A stretch of 64,000 bases of DNA. Source: Parcubacteria group bacterium CG08_land_8_20_14_0_20_48_21. GTDB taxonomy: Bacteria; Patescibacteriota; Patescibacteriia; UBA1544. How positions within the stretch are numbered: the first letter of the stretch is position 1; each line of letters starts with the position of its first letter. The stretch covers positions 35,915-99,914 of the forward strand of contig PEYJ01000011.1 of assembly GCA_002774425.1 (NCBI GenBank), given 5' to 3'. The translations under genes were made by a program, and so were the position numbers. Shown here piece after piece: positions 5,086 to 63,938 of this stretch. The notes beneath the pieces are model-generated. The model saw only the letters and a list, made by a program, of their open reading frames with translations, had not been told where the DNA came from and made no database searches.

Positions 5086-5466
5086 ATGCAGAAAGACATG
5101 CATCCAACCTACTACCAAAAATCCGTCATTACCTGTGTCTGCGGCGCGCATTTTTCTGTCGGATCAACCGTTGAGGCAATTAATGTGGAAATTTGCAGCG
5201 TGTGTCATCCGTTTTATACCGGCAAGCAAAAACTGGTAGATACCGCGCGCCGTGTTGACAAATTCCAAAAGCGCGTAGCCCTTCAGGAGTCCGTCGGACA
5301 GGGACGTAAGGGCAGGGCGGTAAAGCGTACTGCGCGCACGGCTAAAAAATCAACGCACAAAACGCTCAAGTTGTCTGATCTTGCCGATAAAGATGTTGTT
5401 GAAACTCCGGCAGAGGCACAGATGATAAAAAAGAAAAAGACAACGGTTAAAACTACAAAAAAATAG
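5086..5466 (+). CDS. rpmE: 50S ribosomal protein L31 with a lysine-rich C-terminal extension
   Basis: N-terminal 65 aa have the L31 pattern MHP.Y...C.CG......ST......[12 protein letters not shown]. The C-terminal ~60 aa are Lys/Thr-rich. Confidence 0.85.
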
Positions 5467-5510
5467 CCCTCTCAAACGGTGTGGATTTTGTGTTCTGCTC
5501 TTGAGTAAGA

Positions 5511-6632
5511 GTGCGCAATCCCGCCGTTTTTCTTTACTGCTTTTTCTCACGACCGACTACCGGCGAAATAGTAACTTGTTACGCTATACATCCCTTAACA
5601 ACCACCATTCTTGAACGTGTTACGGAACTCGAGCGCCAATTGAGCGACCCGGGTGTGGTTGCGGACACCCGAAAATTTGCGGTGCGGTCAAAAGAGTATC
5701 ACGCACTCATCGAACAAAAATTAGCGGTTGAGCAATACAATAATTTGGAAACAGCGCTTGTGGCGGCGCGAAAAGAATCGGCAGATGATACTAGCGAACT
5801 CGCAATGCTTGCGCAGGAAGAAACAATACGATTGAGCGGCGAGTTGGAGCGGGCGCGCAAAGAGCTCAACGCACTCTTACGTCCCCGCGACCCAAAAGAC
5901 ACAAAAGATAGTATTGTGGAAATTCGGGGGGGATCGGGCGGTGATGAGTCATCGCTTTTTGCCGCGGAGCTTTTTCGCATGTATAGCCGGTTTGCGGAAC
6001 TCAATGGATGGAAAATGACTGTACTCTCTTCTCACCGCACGGAAGTCGGCGGACTCAAAGAACTTATAGCGGAAGTGAAAGGCACGAGGGTATACGGCAC
6101 ACTCAAGTGGGAAAGCGGCGTGCATCGCGTCCAACGTGTTCCGGAAACCGAAAAGAGCGGCCGCGTGCACACGTCAACCGCAACGGTTGCAATACTGCCC
6201 GAAGCGGAAGAAATAGACGTTAAAATTAATCCTAAGGACTTAAAGGTTGATACGTTTTGTTCCAGCGGTGCGGGTGGGCAAAGCGTCAATACCACTTATT
6301 CCGCCGTGCGCATTACGCACCTTCCGACCAACATCGTTATTTCCTGCCAGGATGAGCGTTCGCAGACACAGAACCGAGAACGCGCCATGACCATTTTACG
6401 CGCGCGGCTTTTGGCTTTGGAAGAAGAAAAACAACGCAAAGAAATTGAGGCGGCGCGCAAAGCAACTATTGGCACAGGCGACCGGTCGGAAAAAATCCGC
6501 ACCTATAACTTTCCGCAGGACCGCGTTACCGATCACCGGATTAAGGAAAGCTGGTCCAACATTCCGGCAATCCTTGATGGCGGAATTGCGCCCATACTGG
6601 AAGCATTGGAAAAAGCAGAAGAAAATGCGTAA
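5511..6632 (+). CDS. prfA: peptide chain release factor 1
   Basis: GGQ motif in [12 protein letters not shown]; the RF1-type tripeptide region reads [17 protein letters not shown]; followed by prmC. The first ~33 aa do not align with RF1, so the true start may be downstream or non-canonical. Confidence 0.85.
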
Positions 6633-6701
6633 AAAATAGAAACTATCGCGGACAGCACGCAGGTAGATGATCAAAGCACCTGCGTATCTCGTATCACGTA
6701 T

Positions 6702-7619
6702 ATGTCCCATTCCATGGTAACCGTTGCTGAATTGCTTAAAAAAGCTACCGAACAATTACACGCGCACCATATTGACACCCCGGATCTTGATGCCGAGGTG
6801 CTTTTGTCTTGGGTACTCAACCGAGACCGCGCGTGGCTTTTCGTGCATGCCGATGCGCGTCTGACCGTTGTGCAAAAGGAAAAATTTTTTCGCGTGATAC
6901 AAAAACGCTCGCGCCGTGTTCCGATTGCCTATATCACCGGTAGCAAACCGTTTTACCGGTCGGACTTTATCGTCAATCAACACGTGCTCATCCCCCGCCC
7001 CGAAACGGAAACGCTGGTGGAAGAAGCGGTGCGTGCTCTAGGGGATAAGCGACATCCTGCTACGGTTGTTGATGTCGGCACTGGCAGCGGCTGTATCATG
7101 GTAAGCGTCGTACAAGAACTTTTGGCAAGAAGTGAAGATATTTCCGGTATGCGATTCTACGCAACCGATATATCTCACAAGGCGTTGCGTATTGCGAAAA
7201 AAAATGCAAAAAAAGAAGGTGTTGCAAAATATATCACTTTTTTACACGGTAATTTGTTGGAACCGTTTCTCATCCTGCAGAACGCCGTCCCTACGAAAAA
7301 ACTGTACATTCTTGCAAATCTTCCGTATCTTTCAGAAGTACAAATGCGCAATCTGCAACAGGAGGTCGCCCATGAACCGCGGGAAGCACTTGATGGCGGG
7401 GTTGAGGGATTGGCATACTACCGAAAACTTTTTGCGCAAATGCAAAACATGCGACGCGTACAGCGCGCGAGTATAATCTATACGCTATGCGAAATAGAGC
7501 CCGTGCAGGCAACGACGCTTACCAGCGAGATATGCAAAAACTTTCCAAGAACAACCGTACGCATGCGTAAGGATTTGCAGGGCAATGATCGCGTACTCCT
7601 AGCTCTCTCAAATCTATGA
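6702..7619 (+). CDS. prmC: release factor glutamine N5-methyltransferase (PrmC/HemK)
   Basis: SAM-binding VVDVGTGSGC and NLPY (a variant of the NPPY catalytic motif). Sits directly after prfA. Confidence 0.85.
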   Translation: MSHSMVTVAELLKKATEQLHAHHIDTPDLDAEVLLSWVLNRDRAWLFVHADARLTVVQKEKFFRVIQKRSRRVPIAYITGSKPFYRSDFIVNQHVLIPRPETETLVEEAVRALGDKRHPATVVDVGTGSGCIMVSVVQELLARSEDISGMRFYATDISHKALRIAKKNAKKEGVAKYITFLHGNLLEPFLILQNAVPTKKLYILANLPYLSEVQMRNLQQEVAHEPREALDGGVEGLAYYRKLFAQMQNMRRVQRASIIYTLCEIEPVQATTLTSEICKNFPRTTVRMRKDLQGNDRVLLALSNL

Positions 7620-13095: not shown

Positions 13096-13914
13096 CTACT
13101 CTTCCACGCCAAAAATACCATTTCTTCCCGTCCAGTAGCTTTCGGGATTCAAGATGTCAATTTCAGGTTCAATCCGTATGCTATCAAATCGATTCCGAAT
13201 CCCAAACCAGCTCACCACTTGCGTTGTTGCTTTCCCGGACACCAAGGGGGAAACCACTTTACGCTGCAAGGCAACGGGACGGTCGTCCCGTATGCCGATG
13301 ATCAAGAACCCTACTTCCCAATAATCAAATATGGAGTTGTTCACTGCGGTATAGGTGACGCGGCTCACGACCAACGAACTGTTTTCATGGAGCTGCGCGG
13401 GCGGCGCATACACCAAATCTTTAATGGTAATCTTCTGCCGATCCCCGGCCCAGGCAGCATAGTCGGAAATATCGTGGTTTGAAACATGCGTCCAATCAAG
13501 ACGATCGAAGACAAGGATAACGGTTGCGGCATCTTTGGGCAGGGTGAGTGAAAATCCTGTAAGTGTTTTTTCTTCTCCGGGAAGCGTAAACCCTTCAAAT
13601 ACCGGCGAATTGTAGTCGCCCAGAGAAAAATGATATGAAAATCTTGCATACCAGCGATCGTTGGGATTTGCAACACTTGCGAAAGCATCCGCACTTTCTT
13701 CATTTTCCACGATACCAACGGAGGTGACATTGAGATCCTGTGCGCTGATCTTGGACGCATAATCCCTATGCACCATGCCCGACACTGCAAGTTGCTGTTC
13801 CCATGCGATAGTTTGCTTGCGCTGCAACACGAAGTAATCCACCAGTCCGTAGATACCATTCAGCAGCAGACCTGTGGCAATCGCCAAAAATAGACCACTT
13901 CCCAGCCTCTTCAT
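13096..13914 (-). CDS. hypothetical membrane-anchored protein (one N-terminal transmembrane helix, large extracytoplasmic domain)
   Basis: Long ORF. Start placed at MKRLGSGLFLAIATGLLL (transmembrane). No recognisable motifs. Confidence 0.5.
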   Translation of the reverse strand: MKRLGSGLFLAIATGLLLNGIYGLVDYFVLQRKQTIAWEQQLAVSGMVHRDYASKISAQDLNVTSVGIVENEESADAFASVANPNDRWYARFSYHFSLGDYNSPVFEGFTLPGEEKTLTGFSLTLPKDAATVILVFDRLDWTHVSNHDISDYAAWAGDRQKITIKDLVYAPPAQLHENSSLVVSRVTYTAVNNSIFDYWEVGFLIIGIRDDRPVALQRKVVSPLVSGKATTQVVSWFGIRNRFDSIRIEPEIDILNPESYWTGRNGIFGVEE

Positions 13915-14128
13915 CTGCAAACGATGCGTAGTGATCCAGTAGCCAATGGCCAGCTGCTTATTGCCGACTTCATGGGGTTGGTAGGAGGGCATAGAAATCA
14001 CCAACAACGTGCGACGGACAACCTTAGGTTTATGGGATATGGTTGTGGATTGTATGTTGTTGGTCGTAGATTATTACATTATATCAAAAAGTATGATTTT
14101 TTACCATGAATTTTCAACAGACAGACCC

Positions 14129-18670: not shown

Positions 18671-18904
18671 ATGAAAGGGGTTCGTAAGATGTTCAACGCT
18701 CTTTTGCCATGTTGCTTCATCATGAGCATGGCATTAACCCTGCTGGTATTCGTCGCAATGTTCGTGACTACTAGCAAAAGTCCGGGAGAAGCCCTGTATC
18801 TGGTCATGTACATGACCAGATCATTACCATTGCTGATGGCAATGGTAATGACGAGTGTTGTTGCGGGACTTGCACTCGTGTTCCGTAAAAGAATTTTCTC
18901 CTAA
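18671..18904 (+). CDS. small hydrophobic protein, 2 predicted transmembrane helices, unknown function
   Basis: 77 aa with its own consensus promoter, an AGGAGG SD and a downstream terminator. Confidence 0.5.
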   Translation: MKGVRKMFNALLPCCFIMSMALTLLVFVAMFVTTSKSPGEALYLVMYMTRSLPLLMAMVMTSVVAGLALVFRKRIFS

Positions 18905-18972: not shown

Positions 18973-20271
18973 TCACTTACTACCCTTTTCTTTAATGTCC
19001 TGCAATCCCCTGCGGACATCCCAGTCGTCCGGATCGGTATCGGCATGTATGACTAGCTTGGGAAATTGTTGCTTGAGCGCGTGGTGCATTTGATGCGCCA
19101 CGGTACGCAACGTCGGGTGTACCGTTTTTCCGGAACGCAGCTCTATCACGTACACCATCGGCGGAAGTCCGTAGGTAACGCGGCAGGGCACCCGATAGCC
19201 CATTGCGTGATAATATTGCGCCTCATTTTCATCAGCATGCAATTGCTCAACGGCCTCTTTTTGTTGCACCACAAGATTCTCCGCTTCTTTTCGCGCAGCA
19301 ACGGGAAGTTGTTCCACATACCACGGATGAAAACCGAATCGCGTAGTCAAAAGTGGCATGCGGCACACGCCGTTGCGGTGGCGTTGAATATCGCGGAATG
19401 ATCCGAAATCCAGCAGAAAATCAAAGGTGCACTGCCCGAGTTCCGTCAAAAAATGTGGTAGCCCAACATGTGGCGGGCGCATGGTTGTAATATCCCTATA
19501 TTGTTCCAATGCATGCGCATCAATAGTGGTGTGCAAAGCAAAATCAGGATACTGTTCAGGATTGAAATAGTTGTAGCGCCGCGCAACCGTATCACGATAC
19601 TGTTCCTGGTCTGCATACAATTCATGGCTGAAGCTGTGCGCGTATTTTTCCTTTAATTGTGTATGTATCTCTGCGGCAACCTCGCGCACTTCAGTAAGCG
19701 GATGGTGACGCAAAATGGCGAGCTTGTCCCACGCCTGGCGCAAATTGGTATGCCAGCTCAATTGCGTCATTATACCCGCGGGCAAAAAGCCGCGCAATAT
19801 ATCAAACGAACGCGCATTGATGGCGCGCTCATACACCTTTATATCCTCACCGTCTTTTCGCGGATACTTCTCCCGAATATGTGCACGGACCGCTTCCTGA
19901 CTGCCGAGGTAAAATGCCACCCACGTATCCAGTATCGCTTTGGAATTTTTGGTGCCAACCGGATCGGTTATCGCCTGCTGCGACATGTCAATATAGCGCG
20001 TGCTGGTCTCCTGCCCCGCGTAGAGCGGCCAATCCTGCACAGCTTTGGCAACGAGCGTGCTCACCCCCTCAATAAAGATGGTTGTGCTGCCGCAATCCGC
20101 AATGCTTAAGTGACCATAGCCAACATAAAACCGTTCCATGAATTTTCCTGAACCGGCTTCCTGCACCTTTTGGGCATGCACCTCCACGCTCTGCGCGCTG
20201 CGGGAATAAAGCGCTTGCATCATTGCCGTATCCTGCGGCGCAAATTTATCGTAGACGAATATTTTTGGCAT
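18973..20271 (-). CDS. ThyX-like (Thy1-family) thymidylate synthase, apparent tandem duplication
   Basis: 432 aa. Second half has FRDIQRHRNGVCRMPLLTTRF (RHR motif). First half has VQDWPLYAGQETSTRY aligning to the ThyX RHR-x7-SGRY block, with RHR replaced by DWP. Neighbours are dcd, dut and tmk. Confidence 0.5.
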   Translation of the reverse strand: MPKIFVYDKFAPQDTAMMQALYSRSAQSVEVHAQKVQEAGSGKFMERFYVGYGHLSIADCGSTTIFIEGVSTLVAKAVQDWPLYAGQETSTRYIDMSQQAITDPVGTKNSKAILDTWVAFYLGSQEAVRAHIREKYPRKDGEDIKVYERAINARSFDILRGFLPAGIMTQLSWHTNLRQAWDKLAILRHHPLTEVREVAAEIHTQLKEKYAHSFSHELYADQEQYRDTVARRYNYFNPEQYPDFALHTTIDAHALEQYRDITTMRPPHVGLPHFLTELGQCTFDFLLDFGSFRDIQRHRNGVCRMPLLTTRFGFHPWYVEQLPVAARKEAENLVVQQKEAVEQLHADENEAQYYHAMGYRVPCRVTYGLPPMVYVIELRSGKTVHPTLRTVAHQMHHALKQQFPKLVIHADTDPDDWDVRRGLQDIKEKGSK

Positions 20272-20417: not shown

Positions 20418-21170
20418 ATGATTCTCTCGGACGCCGATATTAAAAAAGCCATGGAAGACGGGCAAATTAGCGTGAAACCCTTATTTCCTAACGCTGTGCA
20501 GCCGGCAAGTATTGACTTGCACCTTGACCGGTATTTTCTTATTTTTGATACCTCCTACCATCACGTGATTGATATCAAGAATCCGGTGGACGATCTCATG
20601 CGGGAAATTGAGATCAACGACGAACGGCCGTTCGTGCTGCACCCGGGCGAGTTTGCGCTTGGCTCCACCTTTGAAGAAGTTGGCGTTGCAGATGATATGG
20701 TGGGGAGGTTGGAAGGCAAGAGCTCGCTCGGACGCCTCGGCATTATCATTCACGCAACTGCCGGCTATCTGGACCCGGGCAATAAACTTCACATGACGCT
20801 GGAGCTCCACAACATCGGCACGCTGCCGGTAAAGCTGTACTACAAAATGCCTATCGCGCAGATGTCGTTTTCTCCGCTTTCTTCCCGAGCGGAAAAGCCG
20901 TACGGCATTAAAGCAAATAGTAAATATTTCGGTGCGTCAAAACCGCAGGCAAGCGCAATGTACCGGGATTTTATTCAGGAAAAACCTGTTGTCGCTGCGG
21001 CGCCAATACTATCCGTACCACAACCGGAAACTTCATTTACTCCGGAAGCCAAACCGCTCGTGACCGAAATGCAGTCAGGTCCAACACCTATAAGCGAAAT
21101 TTTGAAAGAAAAGAGCGAGGCAGCCGTAAGACCTAAAACACGCGCCACGCTCATTCCGCCCCTCCTGTAA
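20418..21170 (+). CDS. dcd: dCTP deaminase with ~90 aa low-complexity C-terminal extension
   Basis: Start set at MILSDADIKKAMEDGQI (a canonical dcd N-terminus; the ORF track starts 65 codons earlier). ASIDLHL and GRLEGKSSLGRLG motifs. Confidence 0.85.
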   Translation: MILSDADIKKAMEDGQISVKPLFPNAVQPASIDLHLDRYFLIFDTSYHHVIDIKNPVDDLMREIEINDERPFVLHPGEFALGSTFEEVGVADDMVGRLEGKSSLGRLGIIIHATAGYLDPGNKLHMTLELHNIGTLPVKLYYKMPIAQMSFSPLSSRAEKPYGIKANSKYFGASKPQASAMYRDFIQEKPVVAAAPILSVPQPETSFTPEAKPLVTEMQSGPTPISEILKEKSEAAVRPKTRATLIPPLL

Positions 21171-21209
21171 CTTACAGGAGGCAGTTTGGGGAAACACGAA
21201 AAAATTTAC

Positions 21210-22214
21210 ATGCCGCTTCAAGCAAAGATCAAACGCGTTGATACTACACTCCCCCTTCCCCGCTACGCAACGGCCGGTGCGGTGGGTTTTGACATGGTTA
21301 GCCGCGAAACAGTTATCATCTCTCCTAAAACGCTCGTGCGCATTCCCAGCAATCTGATTATTGAAATTCCTGCAGGCTATGCGTTGCTCGTGGTTCCCCG
21401 AAGCTCCACGCCGAAGAAGAAGGGGCTGCTCATTCCGCACGGTATGGGTGTTATTGACCGCGACTACTGCGGACCTGCAGATGAGATACTCATCCAACTC
21501 TATAATTTTACGGCCGAAGAAGTGACGGTTGAGCGGGGTGAGCGCATTGCACAGGGACTGTTCACCCGTATTGACCGGGTGGAGTGGAAAGAAGTGGAAA
21601 CCATGGCACACAACGATACACGCGGCGGATTTGGGAGTACGGAACCGCAATCAAAAATGAACATGAACAAACAGGATATTCTTGATATTATTGCGCGCGA
21701 TTCCTGGATGATGGAGGTGTTACGCGCAGCACGTTTACTCCATCTTCCTGATTGGATGATCGGCGGCGGGTTCGTGCGAAATAAGATTTGGGACGTATTA
21801 CATGGCTTTCAGAATGACATGGTTCCAACAGCCGATATTGATCTTATCTACTTTGATCCACGAATTACTGATGCATGGCAAGAAAAAACCTACGATACGC
21901 AACTGAAGAAAATTCTCGACCTTAACTGGTCATCCAAAAACCAAGCGCGCATGCATCTTAAGCACAACCGCTCGCCCTACAAAAACATTGAAGAAGCGCT
22001 TTCCGACTGGGTAGAAACCGCGACTGCCGTTGCTGTTCGATTGCAAGATGATAGTACACTGAGATTATTTGCCCCGCACGGAATAGATGACCTTATGCAT
22101 CTCATTGTTCGTCCAACACCGTTACATGCTTCTAGCTTGCAGCACTTTCATGAACGGGTACACGGCAAAAAATGGCGAGAACGCTGGCCGAAATTAAAAG
22201 TTGTAGAAATATAA
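21210..22214 (+). CDS. dut: dUTP diphosphatase fused to a C-terminal minimal nucleotidyltransferase-fold domain
   Basis: N-terminal dUTPase motifs 1-5 (AGAVGFDM, PRSS, GVIDRDYCG, RIAQ, RGGFGSTE). C-terminal ~185 aa carry GGGF-x20-DIDLIYFD, the hG[GS]...DhD nucleotidyltransferase signature. Start set at MPLQAKIKR. Confidence 0.75.
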   Translation: MPLQAKIKRVDTTLPLPRYATAGAVGFDMVSRETVIISPKTLVRIPSNLIIEIPAGYALLVVPRSSTPKKKGLLIPHGMGVIDRDYCGPADEILIQLYNFTAEEVTVERGERIAQGLFTRIDRVEWKEVETMAHNDTRGGFGSTEPQSKMNMNKQDILDIIARDSWMMEVLRAARLLHLPDWMIGGGFVRNKIWDVLHGFQNDMVPTADIDLIYFDPRITDAWQEKTYDTQLKKILDLNWSSKNQARMHLKHNRSPYKNIEEALSDWVETATAVAVRLQDDSTLRLFAPHGIDDLMHLIVRPTPLHASSLQHFHERVHGKKWRERWPKLKVVEI

Positions 22215-22232: not shown

Positions 22233-22919
22233 ATGCAAACTTCCCGGGGGGGACTCATCGTTATTGACGGCACCGATGGTTCCGGCAAAGCGACCCAGGT
22301 GAAAATATTGACCGATCGGCTGCAGCAAGAAGGCGTGGCAATCGCCTCTTTTGACTTTCCGCAATACGGAAAAAAATCCTCAGGGCTTGTTGAAAATTAT
22401 TTGAATGGCGCCTATGGCACGGCGGACGCGGTAGGCGCGTACCGTGCGTCGCTTTTTTACGCATGCGATCGGTATGACGCAAGCTTTGCGATACGCAAGG
22501 CATTGAACGAAGGTAAGGTAATCGTGACCAACCGCTACGTATCGGCAAATCTGGGGCATCAAATGGCAAAGATCGCTAACACACAAGAACGCAAAAAATT
22601 CAGAGACTGGCTCTACGACGTGGAATATGGCATATTTGATATCCCAAAGCCTGATCTGCAAATCATGTTACACGTGACGCCGGAAATATCACAAAAACTC
22701 GTGGATGACAAAGGGCATCGGGATTACGTTGGTGGCGTCAAACGAGATATTCATGAGGCTGACATCCATCATCTGCGCAAGGCGGAACAAGCATATAAAG
22801 AAATTGCACAGCTTCCCGGTTTCACTCTTATTGAGTGTGTTGAAAATGGTGAAATATTCTCCCGTGAGATTATTGCAGAGCGCATTTGGACTGTTGTTGC
22901 ACCAACACTGGGCTTGTAG
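22233..22919 (+). CDS. tmk: thymidylate kinase
   Basis: 228 aa; P-loop IVIDGTDGSGKAT and DRY motif. Confidence 0.9.
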   Translation: MQTSRGGLIVIDGTDGSGKATQVKILTDRLQQEGVAIASFDFPQYGKKSSGLVENYLNGAYGTADAVGAYRASLFYACDRYDASFAIRKALNEGKVIVTNRYVSANLGHQMAKIANTQERKKFRDWLYDVEYGIFDIPKPDLQIMLHVTPEISQKLVDDKGHRDYVGGVKRDIHEADIHHLRKAEQAYKEIAQLPGFTLIECVENGEIFSREIIAERIWTVVAPTLGL

Positions 22920-29833: not shown

Positions 29834-31000
29834 CTACATCCCGCCATCGGTTACCAAGCGCAGATCTATCCTCTCAACAGCTTCCGGTAAAGTCGTCAGC
29901 CATTTTGGACGCAGGGTCACGGTTACCGAGGTGACTTGCGGAAACGTTTCGTAGTAGACCCGCACCTCATCGGGAGTAAGACCGGTCAAGACGTTCTTGT
30001 CAAACAGCGGTCCCTGTTGTTTGGTTGTTATTGATGTTTCCAGTTGCACGCTCAATCGCGCCATTCCCTTCTCCGCATCCACGGTTTCTACCGTTACGTC
30101 CGCGAGCACGGGCGTACCGTCCTGCCATACCTTGTCATCGGGAAGCGCTTCCGTCAACTTTGCCTTGCGCAGCTCTGTAAACGCGGCGTACGGATACACG
30201 ACACCCGTGAGCGTTATCGTTGTTGTGGCGGAAAGATTCTCTGCAACCTCACCCGCGGCATTGCTCCATTCCGTTGTTCCGAAATCAACGAGGTAGCGCA
30301 CGATATCCTGCGCAGTCAGTGCCTGTTCACGTTCAAAGATGGACTTTGCCTCTTTCTCTACCTGTGTTTGCAAATCATGTTCAAGTTTGACTGTATCTAT
30401 CTCCTTAACCGTAGATATCTCGGCGACACCGTGCGTGAGTGATTTGGCAAGCTCTCCATAAATAACGTCCTGCAGCGCATCGCGCAGTCCCGGAATGGTA
30501 AAATGTGTTTCTTTTTCCAGTGTTCCCGCCCAGGTTTCATCGGTAACATACACCGGGACTTCCGCACTACCCTGCGCAGGTACCCGCACATACTCCCTAG
30601 TCCGCAAAAGTAAGCCGTCGGATGCCAAAAAACGCGTCGTCGCAACAAGCGTCTGCGCGCTTACCGTGGTGTTCACCACGCGCATGATGCCGTCTGCCTG
30701 CGTATCGGCTATGGTTTTTCTGCCCGTGGTTGCGCTGCTTCGCGATGCGGTCAGCGATACCTTACCTACCATTCCCGCAAGCCGTTCGCCCGATATGACA
30801 CCCGTGATGGTACTTTTCGGAACGACATCCGCTATAAAATGCGTGCGAAAAGGCTCCGTGGCCACTGTTACCACCACTTCAGCACGAACAAAAATGAAAT
30901 AAAAAACCACCGCTACCGCAACAACCGTAAGGAAGAGAAAGGTAAATGCAATGGTGCGATAGAAATGCACGCGCGCATAATACGACGATGGAGCAGGCAT
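29834..31000 (-). CDS. hypothetical membrane-anchored protein
   Basis: 388 aa. N-terminal transmembrane helix (TIAFTFLFLTVVAVAVVFYFIFV), then a Thr/Val-rich extracytoplasmic domain. Confidence 0.5.
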   Translation of the reverse strand: MPAPSSYYARVHFYRTIAFTFLFLTVVAVAVVFYFIFVRAEVVVTVATEPFRTHFIADVVPKSTITGVISGERLAGMVGKVSLTASRSSATTGRKTIADTQADGIMRVVNTTVSAQTLVATTRFLASDGLLLRTREYVRVPAQGSAEVPVYVTDETWAGTLEKETHFTIPGLRDALQDVIYGELAKSLTHGVAEISTVKEIDTVKLEHDLQTQVEKEAKSIFEREQALTAQDIVRYLVDFGTTEWSNAAGEVAENLSATTTITLTGVVYPYAAFTELRKAKLTEALPDDKVWQDGTPVLADVTVETVDAEKGMARLSVQLETSITTKQQGPLFDKNVLTGLTPDEVRVYYETFPQVTSVTVTLRPKWLTTLPEAVERIDLRLVTDGGM

Positions 31001-38899: not shown

Positions 38900-39960
38900 A
38901 ATTTTTTCCGCAAATTAACTATCTTAGTTTCTAGAATTTAACGCAACAGCGTTATCGAGTAATTGATTAAAGACTTCGTAAGGCTTTTGGAAGTCCAGCG
39001 CCGCCCTTGGGCGGTCATTAAGTAAATCCTGCACCTTCTTCTTAACTGGATATCTTGTTGAAATCCGTGCCCTTAGGAAAGAATTGTCTGATCAATCCGT
39101 TGGTATTTTCATTCGTGCCTCGTTCCCACGGACTGCGCGGATGGGCAAAGTAAACTTTAATGCCGCTGATTTTAGTGAACAGTTTATGCCGAGCCATTTC
39201 CCGCACCTGGTCATAGGTCATGGTCAATTTCATTTGTCGAGGCAGTTTTTTTACTTCTTTGGCAAATGCCTTAGCTACAATTTCAGCCCCTCTGCTTTTT
39301 ACCGGAACGAGGATAGTCGTGCGGGTCGCGCGCTCTACCAGAGTGCCAAGAGCCAAACGATTGTTCTTTCTGATAATCAAATCGCCTTCACAGTGCCCGG
39401 GGATAATCCTGTCTTCCACCTCTTTCGGCCGTTCCTCGATCGAGAGCATATCTTCTATTCTCCGCTCCATTTTGACGCTCCTGGACTGCTTATGTCTTCT
39501 CTTGTGGTTCTGCCGCAAACAGGCTGTCAGCTCTTTTTTAAGAGAGCCACGGGGAAGAACATAGACGTAGGTGTAAATCGCTTCCGGCGAGATGCGCATA
39601 GTCATATCTAGAGGATAATCTTTTTCCAGTTCTTCTGCAATCTGCCGTGGCGACCATTTCTTTTTTCTCAGTTTTTTCAGAATATATTTCCACAATGCCG
39701 GGTTGTCGTTCAGCTTGTATTTGTTGGTCTTCCTCTTGGACGAATTCCGTTTGGCCCGATGCTGCGCCGTAACTGCTCGATAGGTGCGCTTATCGCAACC
39801 GCCAAATCCGATTTCCCGACTGATGGTGCTTGCATGCCTATCTAGATACTTGGTAATACTACGAACCGAAAATCCTTACGAGAACATCCAGCTGATATCT
39901 TCCCGTTCTAAATCGCTTAATCTTTTATAATTTATCATAGATATCTAAAGTAATTTTTAA
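38900..39960 (-). mobile_element. IS30-family insertion sequence remnant (boundaries approximate, inverted repeats not identified)
   Basis: Contains a ~338-codon IS30-like transposase reading frame with inactivating lesions. Confidence 0.6.
38925..39938 (-). pseudogene. IS30-family DDE transposase, disrupted (nonsense codon near 39876; frameshift near 39045)
   Basis: MINYKRLSDLEREDISWMFS*GFSVRSITKYLDRHASTISREI... (IS30 N-terminal HTH). The 217 aa intact core (39042-39695) has HCEGDL...RGTNENTNGLIRQFFPKGT. The C-terminal tail VKKKVQDLLNDRPRAALDFQKPYEVF continues in the +1 frame. Confidence 0.7.
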
Positions 39961-42607: not shown

Positions 42608-42687
42608 TACAACCTCCGCGTATGGGAGAGCTTTTTCTCCCATACGCAACTTTTTCCCAAAAGTAAATGTCAGTGTATACTACTACC

Positions 42688-43356
42688 ATGAAACCAAAAA
42701 ATAAATTATTCGTAATTGTACTTCTTGTTGCAGTCGTCAGTAGTATCGGTGCAGCTATATTCTTTTTTAGTAAAAAAACAATGCGGACACCAGCGAATAT
42801 ACAACAAGAAACACTATTGTCTCATATTGATCCCACTCAAAATATCGACGGCACGTCTGTTTACTTAGAGAATGGCTGGAAAGCATACACCGATACAGTG
42901 TTAAAATTTCAACTGGAATACCCGAGTCGCGAGTTCGCGTATGGTATTCTCAAATCTCGAACAACAAGTCGTATTCGTAAGTCTTTTGAAGGCGAGCTGG
43001 TAGCAGGAGACGTTGCATACACTGTTAGTTTTTCTGACGGCGATTCAGCACGTATTGGCGTGAGTATGCAACCCGCACATATTTCTTCGCTCGAAGAATG
43101 GCGTATTCAATTTCTTGCATCGCAACCTGATTATTTGGAGCATAATGAGTTATGGGATTTTCGCATCATAAGAGCAGCAAACCAAGAAGCATTGTTTATT
43201 CGCCGTATCCCGTCTTTTGAGGGTCAATACGAAGACGAACAGTTACCTGATGAAATATACATGCTCCACGACGGCATGTTAGTGCAACTCTACATATGGT
43301 ATTTACCGAAAGAAGATCGTGAGAGAGTATTAAAAAGTTTCCGCTTTTTGGAATAA
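42688..43356 (+). CDS. hypothetical membrane-anchored protein (AT-rich gene)
   Basis: Start at MKPKNKLFVIVLLVAVVSSIGAAIFFF (transmembrane). GC is clearly below the window average. Has a degraded paralogue immediately downstream. Confidence 0.5.
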   Translation: MKPKNKLFVIVLLVAVVSSIGAAIFFFSKKTMRTPANIQQETLLSHIDPTQNIDGTSVYLENGWKAYTDTVLKFQLEYPSREFAYGILKSRTTSRIRKSFEGELVAGDVAYTVSFSDGDSARIGVSMQPAHISSLEEWRIQFLASQPDYLEHNELWDFRIIRAANQEALFIRRIPSFEGQYEDEQLPDEIYMLHDGMLVQLYIWYLPKEDRERVLKSFRFLE

Positions 43357-62960: not shown

Positions 62961-63938
62961 TTATGTTTTGTGAGATGTATGGTGCGTAAATTTCCGAACA
63001 TACAACCAGAGGCTTCCCATACCCACAAAGACCGTGAGAAGCTTTAAAATCCAGCCGATTGTCGGCAGACCCATGAGCATGACGAGCACGAACGCACCTC
63101 CGGCAAACTGTACGTATGGCTTCGTCGGTATGTTGGGCAGAAGTTTTTTCCCGATAGCGTGCGCAACCACGATTTTGGCGAAATACATAGCCGCAACCCA
63201 TCCGGCGAGCATCAGCAATCCCAAAGGAATGCCGATAATGGTGAGTAACAGCGCAAGCGCAATAAGGGGCGACAATACCGTTACCGCAATTCCGTGCCAC
63301 AGCGCTTTATCCAACGTCTTATACAGTTGTTTTGCCGTACCCTCAAGAAACGGCTTGGCGATGTGCAAGCATACCATACCCACGACAAGCATCCCGAAGA
63401 GATACGCCAAGAGCAGCAGTAGATGCACAGCTACCGCAAAACCGCTGAAGGTATCTTCTTTGTCAGGCGTGCGCGTATGCTGCACCGTCCCTTCTATAAC
63501 CGACCCTTCCGCCAAGGTCAGTGCGGTATCAGGTGAGCTGTACCGCACATTACCCGTTATATGCGCCTGGGGCAAAAGCATAATGCCGCCCCCGTGTACA
63601 AGCGCCAGCGACATATTGCCGCCAACACTGCCTGCCACCGTTGTTTGCGTAACTGCGCCGGCAATATCACCGTGCACTACCCCCCGCACCTCAACAGATT
63701 GCGCGCCAATAAGCACATCCCAACCAACCTGTGTTGCGGCTCCCAAAAGTACGCTCTTGGCAACAACGCTCACGTTTTTTCCCACCGCGCCGTCTATTTC
63801 CAATATGTCGGCAATACCGCGCACATTGCCCGAAACGTCCCCTAAAATGCGTACGCGCGAGCCGAATACCAGCACATCCCCCGCCACAGGTCCGGAGATG
63901 GTAATCGTATTTCCCGCAACGATAACGTCTTTTGCCAT
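62961..63938 (-). CDS. bactofilin-like beta-helical repeat protein with C-terminal polytopic membrane domain
   Basis: N-terminal ~150 aa of G.V.G.V....V.I.G repeats (VAGDVLVFGSRVRILGDVSGNVRG...), then 4-5 hydrophobic helices. Confidence 0.5.
   Translation of the reverse strand: MAKDVIVAGNTITISGPVAGDVLVFGSRVRILGDVSGNVRGIADILEIDGAVGKNVSVVAKSVLLGAATQVGWDVLIGAQSVEVRGVVHGDIAGAVTQTTVAGSVGGNMSLALVHGGGIMLLPQAHITGNVRYSSPDTALTLAEGSVIEGTVQHTRTPDKEDTFSGFAVAVHLLLLLAYLFGMLVVGMVCLHIAKPFLEGTAKQLYKTLDKALWHGIAVTVLSPLIALALLLTIIGIPLGLLMLAGWVAAMYFAKIVVAHAIGKKLLPNIPTKPYVQFAGGAFVLVMLMGLPTIGWILKLLTVFVGMGSLWLYVRKFTHHTSHKT

Follow-up and report, generated by a model that had tools for sequence, protein, structure and literature searches.

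We analyzed a 64,000-nucleotide stretch of contig PEYJ01000011.1 (GenBank assembly GCA_002774425.1, positions 35,915 to 99,914 of the forward strand) from Parcubacteria group bacterium CG08_land_8_20_14_0_20_48_21, referred to below as the window. The subject of this report is an open reading frame (ORF) in the window, here designated thyX2, whose product resembles two copies of the flavin-dependent thymidylate synthase (FDTS) ThyX joined in one chain. thyX2 occupies positions 18973..20271 (minus strand), has an ATG start, and codes for 432 amino acids (aa) followed by a stop codon. A protein search showed that its product is identical to P0001, a database hypothetical protein from a metagenome-assembled genome (MAG) of the Parcubacteria group CG08. 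An earlier note on this DNA had read the ORF as a tandem of two ThyX-like domains, and the product was divided into the following parts:

19627..20271, minus strand: N-terminal ThyX-fold half (N-half), aa 1-215, aligned by hhalign to residues 1-207 of Thermotoga maritima ThyX
19543..19626, minus strand: variable linker, aa 216-243, of low identity among relatives and partly helical in the AlphaFold2 model
18976..19542, minus strand: C-terminal ThyX-fold half (C-half), aa 244-432, matched to ThyX by fold and predicted to keep one active-site role only ('subunit A', described below)

Two stretches of the whole protein matched the Pfam Thy1 family (PF02511; E 5.9e-18, 65.8 bits; gathering cut-off, 24.8 bits). 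The match was stronger in the first half, and the N-half alone (aa 1-224) scored 55.5 bits (E 8e-15), covering positions 16-188 of the 191 in the profile. The full-length AlphaFold2 model, built with 60 homologues, had a predicted local distance difference test (pLDDT) score of 87.7 and a predicted template modeling score of 0.87. The stretches modeled with low confidence (aa 53-59 and the 80s-90s) correspond in ThyX to the region of the cofactor-contacting H53 and to the active-site loop, which is flexible. When the full-length model was compared with the Protein Data Bank (PDB) using Foldseek, only ThyX entries were matched. The C-half was also modeled alone (aa 223-432, AlphaFold2; pLDDT 80). 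This model gave 115 PDB matches at E<=1e-3 in Foldseek, and the top 50 were all ThyX with template modeling (TM) scores of ~0.6, including chains of Paramecium bursaria chlorella virus 1 (PBCV-1; 4fzb), T. maritima (1kq4), and Corynebacterium. The Pfam check proposed in the earlier note thus returned two hits, and a ThyX fold was found for the second half. These results indicate that the protein is a tandem of two ThyX folds, as the earlier note had claimed. No solved structure with two ThyX folds in one chain was found in the PDB by phmmer, family profile, or Foldseek.

Reciprocal distribution of active-site residues

Each active site of ThyX is built from three subunits, here called A, B, and C (PMC6514825). 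The RHR motif (R95-R97 in Mycobacterium tuberculosis [Mtb] ThyX) and T. maritima R174 (R199 in Mtb) come from subunit A. The phosphates of flavin adenine dinucleotide (FAD) are contacted by two residues of subunit B, T. maritima T55 (S71 in Mtb) and R165 (R190 in Mtb), and subunit C contributes the S88/R90/Y91 loop of T. maritima (S105/R107/Y108 in Mtb) (PMC6514825). H53 of T. maritima ThyX lies on 'monomer-3', the third monomer (PMC11940539), and R174, S88, R90, and Y91 are catalytic in ThyX (PMC8316439). The same A/B split is seen in PBCV-1 ThyX (PMC3498832). In PolB, a ThyX-fold enzyme, the phosphate of deoxyuridine monophosphate (dUMP) is bound by R82 and H83 of one monomer and S96', A97', R98', and R166' of its neighbor, E94' and R86 hold the ribose, and R193 and R98' hold the uracil (PMC5003785). 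By a constant offset, these PolB residues correspond to T. maritima R74, R78, and R174 (A) and E86, S88, G89, R90, and R147 (C). The RHR and the Ser of one canonical site come from different subunits (PMC6514825, PMC5003785, PMC3498832).

For the present analysis, the A-role residues were mapped as binding the FAD phosphates, flavin, and uracil. The B role was assigned to H53, T55, and R165 (folate and FAD-phosphate contacts), and the C role to the E86/S88/R90/Y91 loop and R147 (dUMP binding and catalysis). T. maritima ThyX, whose query sequence was verified against PDB 1kq4/1o26, served as the ruler alongside alignments to Mtb and Corynebacterium ThyX (hhalign and hmmsearch). The features located in this way were as follows:

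20104..20112, minus strand: H54-L55-S56, equivalent to T. maritima H53/T55 and Mtb H69/S71, the putative folate-stacking His and FAD-phosphate Ser of the third subunit (PMC6514825, PMC11940539)
20026..20034, minus strand: D80-W81-P82, the degenerate RHR position, placed by profile alignment and hhalign
19993..20010, minus strand: E88-T-S90-T-R92-Y93, the retained predicted dUMP-binding and catalytic loop, conserved as E-x-S-[ST]-R-Y (PMC8316439, PMC6514825, PMC5003785)
19792..19794, minus strand: R160, a putative dUMP-phosphate Arg equivalent to T. maritima R147, Mtb R172, and PolB R166', from the same subunit as the loop (PMC5003785)
19738..19746, minus strand: N176-L-R178, containing the putative 'subunit B' FAD-phosphate Arg, equivalent to T. 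maritima N163/R165 and Mtb R190 (PMC6514825)
19375..19395, minus strand: R293-D-I-Q-R297-H298-R299, the retained RHR (predicted contacts to FAD phosphates, flavin N1/O2, and dUMP) with the R74 equivalent (PMC6514825, PMC11940539, PMC5003785)
19330..19356, minus strand: P306-L-L-T-T-R-F-G-F, the degenerate counterpart of the S88/R90/Y91 loop
19117..19137, minus strand: R379-S-G-K-T-V-H385, equivalent by hhalign to T. maritima R174 (dUMP N3/O4 activation, PMC8316439) and H178
18994..19023, minus strand: C-terminal tail W417-D-V-R-R421-G422-L-Q-D-I426, family-specific and lacking a counterpart in the T. maritima alignment

The two motif regions are VQDWPLYAGQETSTRY at aa 78-93 in the N-half and FRDIQRHRNGVCRMPLLTTRF at aa 292-312 in the C-half. 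When the family profile was aligned to Corynebacterium and Mtb ThyX, D80-W81-P82 fell exactly on RHR, and S90, R92, and Y93 aligned with the three fixed residues of the S-x-R-Y loop. This agrees with the earlier note, which had stated that RHR is replaced by DWP in the N-half and kept in the C-half. Among 354 full-length sequences, none had RHR in the N-half, where the variants at this position include DWP, DNP, and DWQ; RHR was present in the C-half of 336 and RQR in that of 16. Neither half passed a single-domain RHR-x7-S test. The N-half reads DWP-x7-S and the C-half RHR-x7-L, and the motif is complete only across both halves.

The three roles were then compared between the halves, with conservation given for the same 354 sequences. 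The A role was kept in the C-half, where R293, R297, H298, R299, R379, and H385 are equivalent to T. maritima R74, R78, H79, R80, R174, and H178; H298 was conserved in 95% of the sequences and the other five residues in 100%. The corresponding N-half positions are degenerate (K76, D80, a variable residue 81, and P82), with no conserved Arg at the R174 position. Conversely, the B role was kept in the N-half by H54 (99%), S56 (100%), and R178, the equivalents of H53, T55, and R165, and has no counterpart in the C-half, which lacks the His and Ser and has L369/P370 at the R165 position. The C role was likewise kept in the N-half by E88 (97%), S90 and R92 (both 100%), and Y93 and R160 (both 98%), equivalent to E86, S88, R90, Y91, and R147. 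The C-half counterpart is degenerate, with L307 in the loop segment and, at the R147 position, an invariant Q352. Its residues aligned to S88, R90, and Y91 varied among 111 diverse representatives (T/S/N, D/S/E/K/R, and Y/L/F, respectively), and P306 was conserved. Over the full set of T. maritima contact residues (H53, T55, R74, R78, H79, R80, E86, S88, R90, Y91, R147, R165, R174, and H178), each was conserved in exactly one half. These results indicate that the halves are degenerate in complementary ways, the C-half keeping the predicted A role only and the N-half the predicted B and C roles only.

The earlier note had described a single degenerate half. This held for the N-half, which has lost RHR and R174, but the C-half is not intact either, having lost the dUMP loop, R147, and the T55/R165 positions. 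An LP....T..W..N.R......LR block, which the note had placed in both halves, was present in the N-half only (aa 163-188); aa 353-379 of the C-half keep just the final E-L-R.

Mean identity among representatives was 47% and 39% for the halves and 19% for the linker, and identity to relatives was 39-70% in the halves versus 19-39% in the linker. This pattern indicates that both halves, and not the linker, are under purifying selection. The region around DWP was also well conserved (K76 99%; D80 92/111 among diverse representatives and without exception among close relatives), as was the C-terminal tail (R421 100%, G422 98%, and I426 98% of the 354 sequences).

Genomic context

The genes next to thyX2 are as follows:

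20418..21170, plus strand: dcd, the divergent neighbor, deoxycytidine triphosphate (dCTP) deaminase-like (PF22769, 140 bits), with the likely start MILSD at 20418 according to homologues; its product would supply dUTP or dUMP
21186..22214, plus strand: dut, a deoxyuridine triphosphatase (dUTPase) at aa 23-152 (PF00692, 86 bits) fused to NTP_transf_6 at aa 181-339 (PF06042, 183 bits)
22233..22919, plus strand: tmk, thymidylate kinase (PF02223, 62.8 bits)

Together, dcd, dut, thyX2, and tmk constitute a predicted complete route from dCTP to thymidine diphosphate within the window. The mechanically called dcd ORF extends upstream to a TTG at 20223, overlapping the thyX2 start, and the dcd product carries a C-terminal tail of ~95 aa beyond the DCD domain, rich in P, S, T, E, and K and including VVAAAPILSVPQPETSFTPEAKPLVTEMQSGPTPISE.

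We next examined the loci of related genes. A pattern scan of GTDB species-representative genomes gave 423 stretches with a tblastn-confirmed relative. Of these, 80 (L001-L080) were used for locus counts; all are MAGs, mostly labeled Patescibacteria/Candidate Phyla Radiation (CPR), with some other automatic labels. Within 3.5 kb of the tandem thyX, tmk was found in 66 of the 80 loci, an AAA_18 P-loop kinase in 52, a deoxycytidine monophosphate (dCMP) deaminase (PF00383) directly upstream on the same strand in 46, serine hydroxymethyltransferase (SHMT; PF00464), a source of methylenetetrahydrofolate (CH2-THF), in 27, dut in 23, MazG in 12, and dcd in 11. Several relatives are themselves fusions of dCMP deaminase to the tandem ThyX. 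The usual CPR order is co-directional, nusG-rplK-rplA ... dCMP deaminase - thyX - tmk ..., with dut and gatB downstream. The window differs in that thyX2 alone is inverted and a divergent dcd stands in place of the usual upstream dCMP deaminase. The note's argument that the context (a divergent dcd, then dut and tmk) speaks for conversion of dUMP to deoxythymidine monophosphate (dTMP) is supported by the presence of genes of the same pathway at the related loci. None of the 80 loci had NTP_transf_6 beside dut. The AAA_18/AAA_17 P-loop kinase, ~185 aa long and absent from the window, may be another (deoxy)nucleoside monophosphate kinase.

A search for other thymidylate synthases, as the earlier note had advised, found no thyA and no second thyX in the 64-kb window (tblastn with Escherichia coli ThyA and T. 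maritima ThyX, family hidden Markov models, and Pfam scans of large ORFs). Neither thyA nor a single-domain ThyX was found in the 80 related loci, apart from a truncated thyA remnant in one Patescibacteria MAG (L077). This remnant, a 132-aa ORF at 5456..5854 on the plus strand, matches the E. coli ThyA N-terminus with 61% identity over its first ~94 residues, then diverges and stops. Directly downstream of it are a tandem thyX (6001..7287) and tmk; the remnant may record ThyA in the course of being displaced.

Distribution of the tandem protein

Database searches matched 4195 proteins at E<=1e-3. The best 120 of these were 61-69% identical to the thyX2 product, mostly 428-441 aa long, derived from Moran-, Falkow-, Uhr-, and Paceibacteria, and labeled either 'FAD-dependent thymidylate synthase' or 'hypothetical'. 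When representatives clustered at 50% identity were searched exhaustively, 1972 clusters were matched, 502 of them at E<=1e-30; the best 150 of the 1972 include some truncated fragments but consist mostly of full-length proteins with two domains. Applied to relatives, Pfam usually picks up the N-terminal domain only. An assembly or frameshift artifact was ruled out, with thousands of independent sequences having the same length and architecture; the 432-aa tandem protein is a real feature.

More distant full-length relatives were found in phages and among longer bacterial proteins. Those of Vibrio jumbo phages are 33% identical over 97% coverage, with a TM score of 0.79 over 440 columns in BFVD, and those of the Microcystis phage Ma-LMM01 group are 24% identical. 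A bacterial branch of 505-590 aa (P0380-P0411) shows the same residue split with long insertions between the halves, its motifs being GHxS and GQE[RK]STR[YF] in the N-half and [RK]DFNRHR in the C-half. The tandem design, unusual but apparently functional, is widespread in ultra-small CPR bacteria. Individual distant members are as follows:

3929..5314 of L081: tandem ThyX of Vibrio phage vB_VmeM-Yong MS32, annotated as hypothetical protein only
1387..2862 of L082: Microcystis phage Ma-LMM01 gp020, annotated 'thymidylate synthase', with the same residue split
10001..11578 of L084: 525-aa distant relative between tmk and a two-domain DCD gene, next to rplK-nusG-secE

Predicted two-site enzyme and alternative explanations

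By fold, residues, and context, the thyX2 product is a divergent member of the Thy1 superfamily that would work like ThyX/FDTS. We consider it likely that it is a functional flavin- and CH2-THF-dependent thymidylate synthase, converting dUMP to dTMP, that arose by duplication, fusion, and complementary active-site loss. An ancestral ThyX gene would have been duplicated and fused, after which the halves lost complementary parts of the active site. With the subunits of the D2 ThyX tetramer labeled A to D, site 1 is formed by A (RHR and R174), B (T55 and R165), and C (the loop and R147), and applying the two-fold axes gives (B; A; D) as site 2, (C; D; A) as site 3, and (D; C; B) as site 4. If the C-halves take positions A and D and the N-halves B and C, sites 1 and 4 would be complete, and sites 2 and 3 would lack residues in each of the three roles; the other two placements of the halves would leave no fully intact site. 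A C-half with only the A role and an N-half with only the B and C roles are exactly what the arrangement with two complete sites requires.

Because the roles are split between the halves, a single chain should be unable to form a site. A homodimer would act as a pseudo-tetramer in which the two C-halves are related by the molecular two-fold axis and two sites are complete and two dead. Each N-half would serve two sites, as 'B' in one and 'C' in the other. Each 432-aa chain is predicted to bind one FAD and one dUMP, or two FAD per dimer. dUMP would be supplied via dcd and dut, and dTMP passed on to tmk. The folds, the residue pattern, and the context were observed, whereas dimerization, the binding of two FAD per dimer, and activity are what we infer from them. 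The reduced, asymmetric set of sites anticipated by the earlier note is thus also predicted when the conserved residues are mapped onto the published three-subunit site.

Several observations weigh against this explanation. The C-half alone (aa 225-432) scored just 15.2 bits against Pfam Thy1 (E 0.019), under the cut-off, and the protein failed the test for the thyX equivalog TIGR02170 (27.4 bits against a cut-off of 87.9). No PDB sequence matched the 432-aa protein at E<=10 in phmmer, and a family profile was needed instead. The protein is therefore a very divergent ThyX relative, and its second domain was for this reason tested independently. Direct profile similarity between the N-half and the C-half was marginal (hhalign E 0.004); the shallow family alignment gave fragments, and the 50%-identity representatives a better alignment. 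The halves therefore appear to be old and diverged, and the tandem claim is based on the Pfam and fold evidence rather than on direct repeat similarity. As for single residues, R178 was invariant in 115 close relatives yet present in 92 of the 111 diverse representatives (83%), and the equivalent of Mtb R87, a dUMP-phosphate Arg, was not conserved in the N-half. Finally, no SHMT was found in the 64-kb window.

Within the proposed dimer, the dead pseudo-sites might have been repurposed as a conserved pocket, for example for docking of NAD(P)H or as an allosteric nucleotide site. We regard this as unlikely but worth naming, because residues of the former sites are almost invariant (K76, D80, P306, W317-Y318, Q352-Y353, and R421-G422 of the tail). 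To our knowledge, canonical ThyX has no dedicated NADPH pocket and uses the folate site.

Among the alternatives, most weight is given to an enzyme of ThyX fold that is not a thymidylate synthase and acts on another substrate or yields another product, for example a C5-methylase of uridine monophosphate (UMP) like PolB or a maker of hydroxymethylated or otherwise modified dUMP or dCMP. ThyX-fold enzymes with altered specificity do exist, as exemplified by PolB (PMC5003785), which was also among the Foldseek matches. The occurrence of relatives in jumbo phages, which often modify their DNA, the low TIGR02170 score, and conserved family-specific residues such as R421, W317-Y318, and Q352-Y353 would also fit a different product. 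By contrast, every known dUMP-contact or catalytic residue of ThyX is conserved in the appropriate half, and the linkage in CPR bacteria to tmk, dCMP deaminase (sometimes fused), dut, dcd, and SHMT is that of the classical dTMP pathway, with no other thymidylate synthase nearby. A different reaction is therefore improbable in our view.

It was also considered whether all four pseudo-symmetric sites are still used, with the N-half binding FAD or another cofactor via non-canonical residues. The conservation of K76 and D80 noted above, together with the largely conserved H190, indicates that the 'dead' pocket is not drifting freely. However, sites with an N-half in the A role would be without RHR and R174, and their C-halves without the B and C equivalents, so that no catalytic residue would be left; the use of four sites is thus very improbable.

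We give slightly less credence still to a pseudoenzyme without catalytic activity, or a ThyX derivative with a regulatory or structural function, with dTMP coming from salvage or another synthase. CPR bacteria have reduced biosynthesis and depend on hosts, which would suit such a protein, neither half has a complete RHR-x7-S motif, and the search for another synthase covered the 64-kb window of the genome. Against this, the losses are exactly complementary, the catalytic residues are 95-100% conserved in the 354 sequences, with relatives down to 24% identity, and the gene is linked in an operon-like manner, or fused, to enzymes that produce dUMP and consume dTMP. Least probable of all, and barely credible, is a protein active solely as a hetero-oligomer with a separate canonical ThyX encoded elsewhere: a single chain alone does lack a full site, but a homodimer would already supply every role, no single-domain ThyX was found in the window or the 80 related loci, and members of the family occur as one conserved gene within an operon.

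Comparison with known systems

The thyX2 product shares its fold, catalytic and cofactor residues, and genomic partners with canonical ThyX/FDTS (T. maritima TM0449, Mtb Rv2754c, and PBCV-1 A674R). The chemistry is presumably the same, with FAD, NADPH, and CH2-THF used to convert dUMP to dTMP (EC 2.1.1.148). Canonical ThyX has ~220-250 aa and is a homotetramer with four sites and a full RHR-x7-S motif in each subunit, whereas the tandem protein has two fused folds, with RHR kept by the C-half and S-x-R-Y by the N-half, and two predicted sites per pseudo-tetramer. Thermus thermophilus Thy1 (PDB 6j61) is also longer than usual, but its 270-aa chain carries a small non-ThyX appendage at the C-terminus. 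PolB (PDB 4p5a/4p5b), the UMP/dUMP C5-methylase of polyoxin biosynthesis, shares the ThyX fold and the contribution of dUMP-binding residues by two monomers (PMC5003785). It differs in being a single-domain homotetramer with an intact motif and extra UMP loops. The thyX2 product did not pass a test for the PolB type: its architecture is tandem, and its neighbors are housekeeping nucleotide-metabolism genes rather than a biosynthetic cluster.

The closest counterparts in architecture are the proteins of jumbo phages (vB_VmeM-Yong and BONAISHI), of Ma-LMM01, and of the 505-590 aa bacterial branch, which show the same split (GHxS and GQE-x-ST-R-Y; RD-x-NRHR). These differ in their 24-33% identity, longer linkers, and insertions, and are annotated as hypothetical or thymidylate synthase. 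The ThyX of Chlamydia trachomatis (CT632), about double the usual length at ~529 aa, was reportedly shown to be active by Griffin et al. in 2005 and may belong to the tandem family. Its membership of the 505-590 aa branch would mean that the activity of a tandem ThyX has been measured before, although the protein is not known to have been read as a tandem. The monomeric dUTPases of herpesviruses such as Epstein-Barr virus offer a parallel, in which an oligomeric enzyme was duplicated and fused, complementary motifs were lost, and fewer sites were rebuilt, inside the fused chain. The evolutionary logic is the same as that proposed for the tandem ThyX; the fold and reaction are unrelated.

In the searchable literature, including ThyX reviews, no description was found of the tandem architecture, the reciprocal loss of roles, or a two-site dimer. 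The functional label is already known, many members being annotated 'FAD-dependent thymidylate synthase'; the architectural reading appears to be new. The tandem ThyX is a neat structural-evolutionary case that affects the metabolic annotation of CPR bacteria, rather than a system of a new kind. A very large part of the CPR/Patescibacteria appears to make its dTMP with this enzyme, and standard tests would misjudge it: the equivalog model fails, Pfam usually sees only the half without the motif, and a motif check would call each half inactive. In metabolic reconstructions, thymidylate synthesis could therefore be scored, wrongly, as missing or defective. The protein also offers what appears to be a natural dissection of the three-subunit ThyX site, with the A role in one domain and the B and C roles in the other. 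It would be a system for asking how many sites are needed, whether sites communicate, and which contacts are indispensable, questions that bear on ThyX as an antibacterial target. In evolutionary terms, it would be a clean case, common to bacteria and jumbo phages, in which duplication and fusion were followed by the complementary loss of active-site roles.

Other features of the window

Outside the genes described above, a 217-aa ORF at 39042..39695 on the minus strand gave a weak match to the integrase core (rve, PF00665). It may be a remnant of an insertion sequence or transposase in an otherwise housekeeping region. ORFs of 77-388 aa without a Pfam match at the thresholds used were located at 29834..31000, 13096..14007, and 62961..63938 on the minus strand and at 42667..43356 and 18671..18904 on the plus strand. 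The last of these, a 77-aa ORF between rplA and thyX2, looks hydrophobic and membrane-like.

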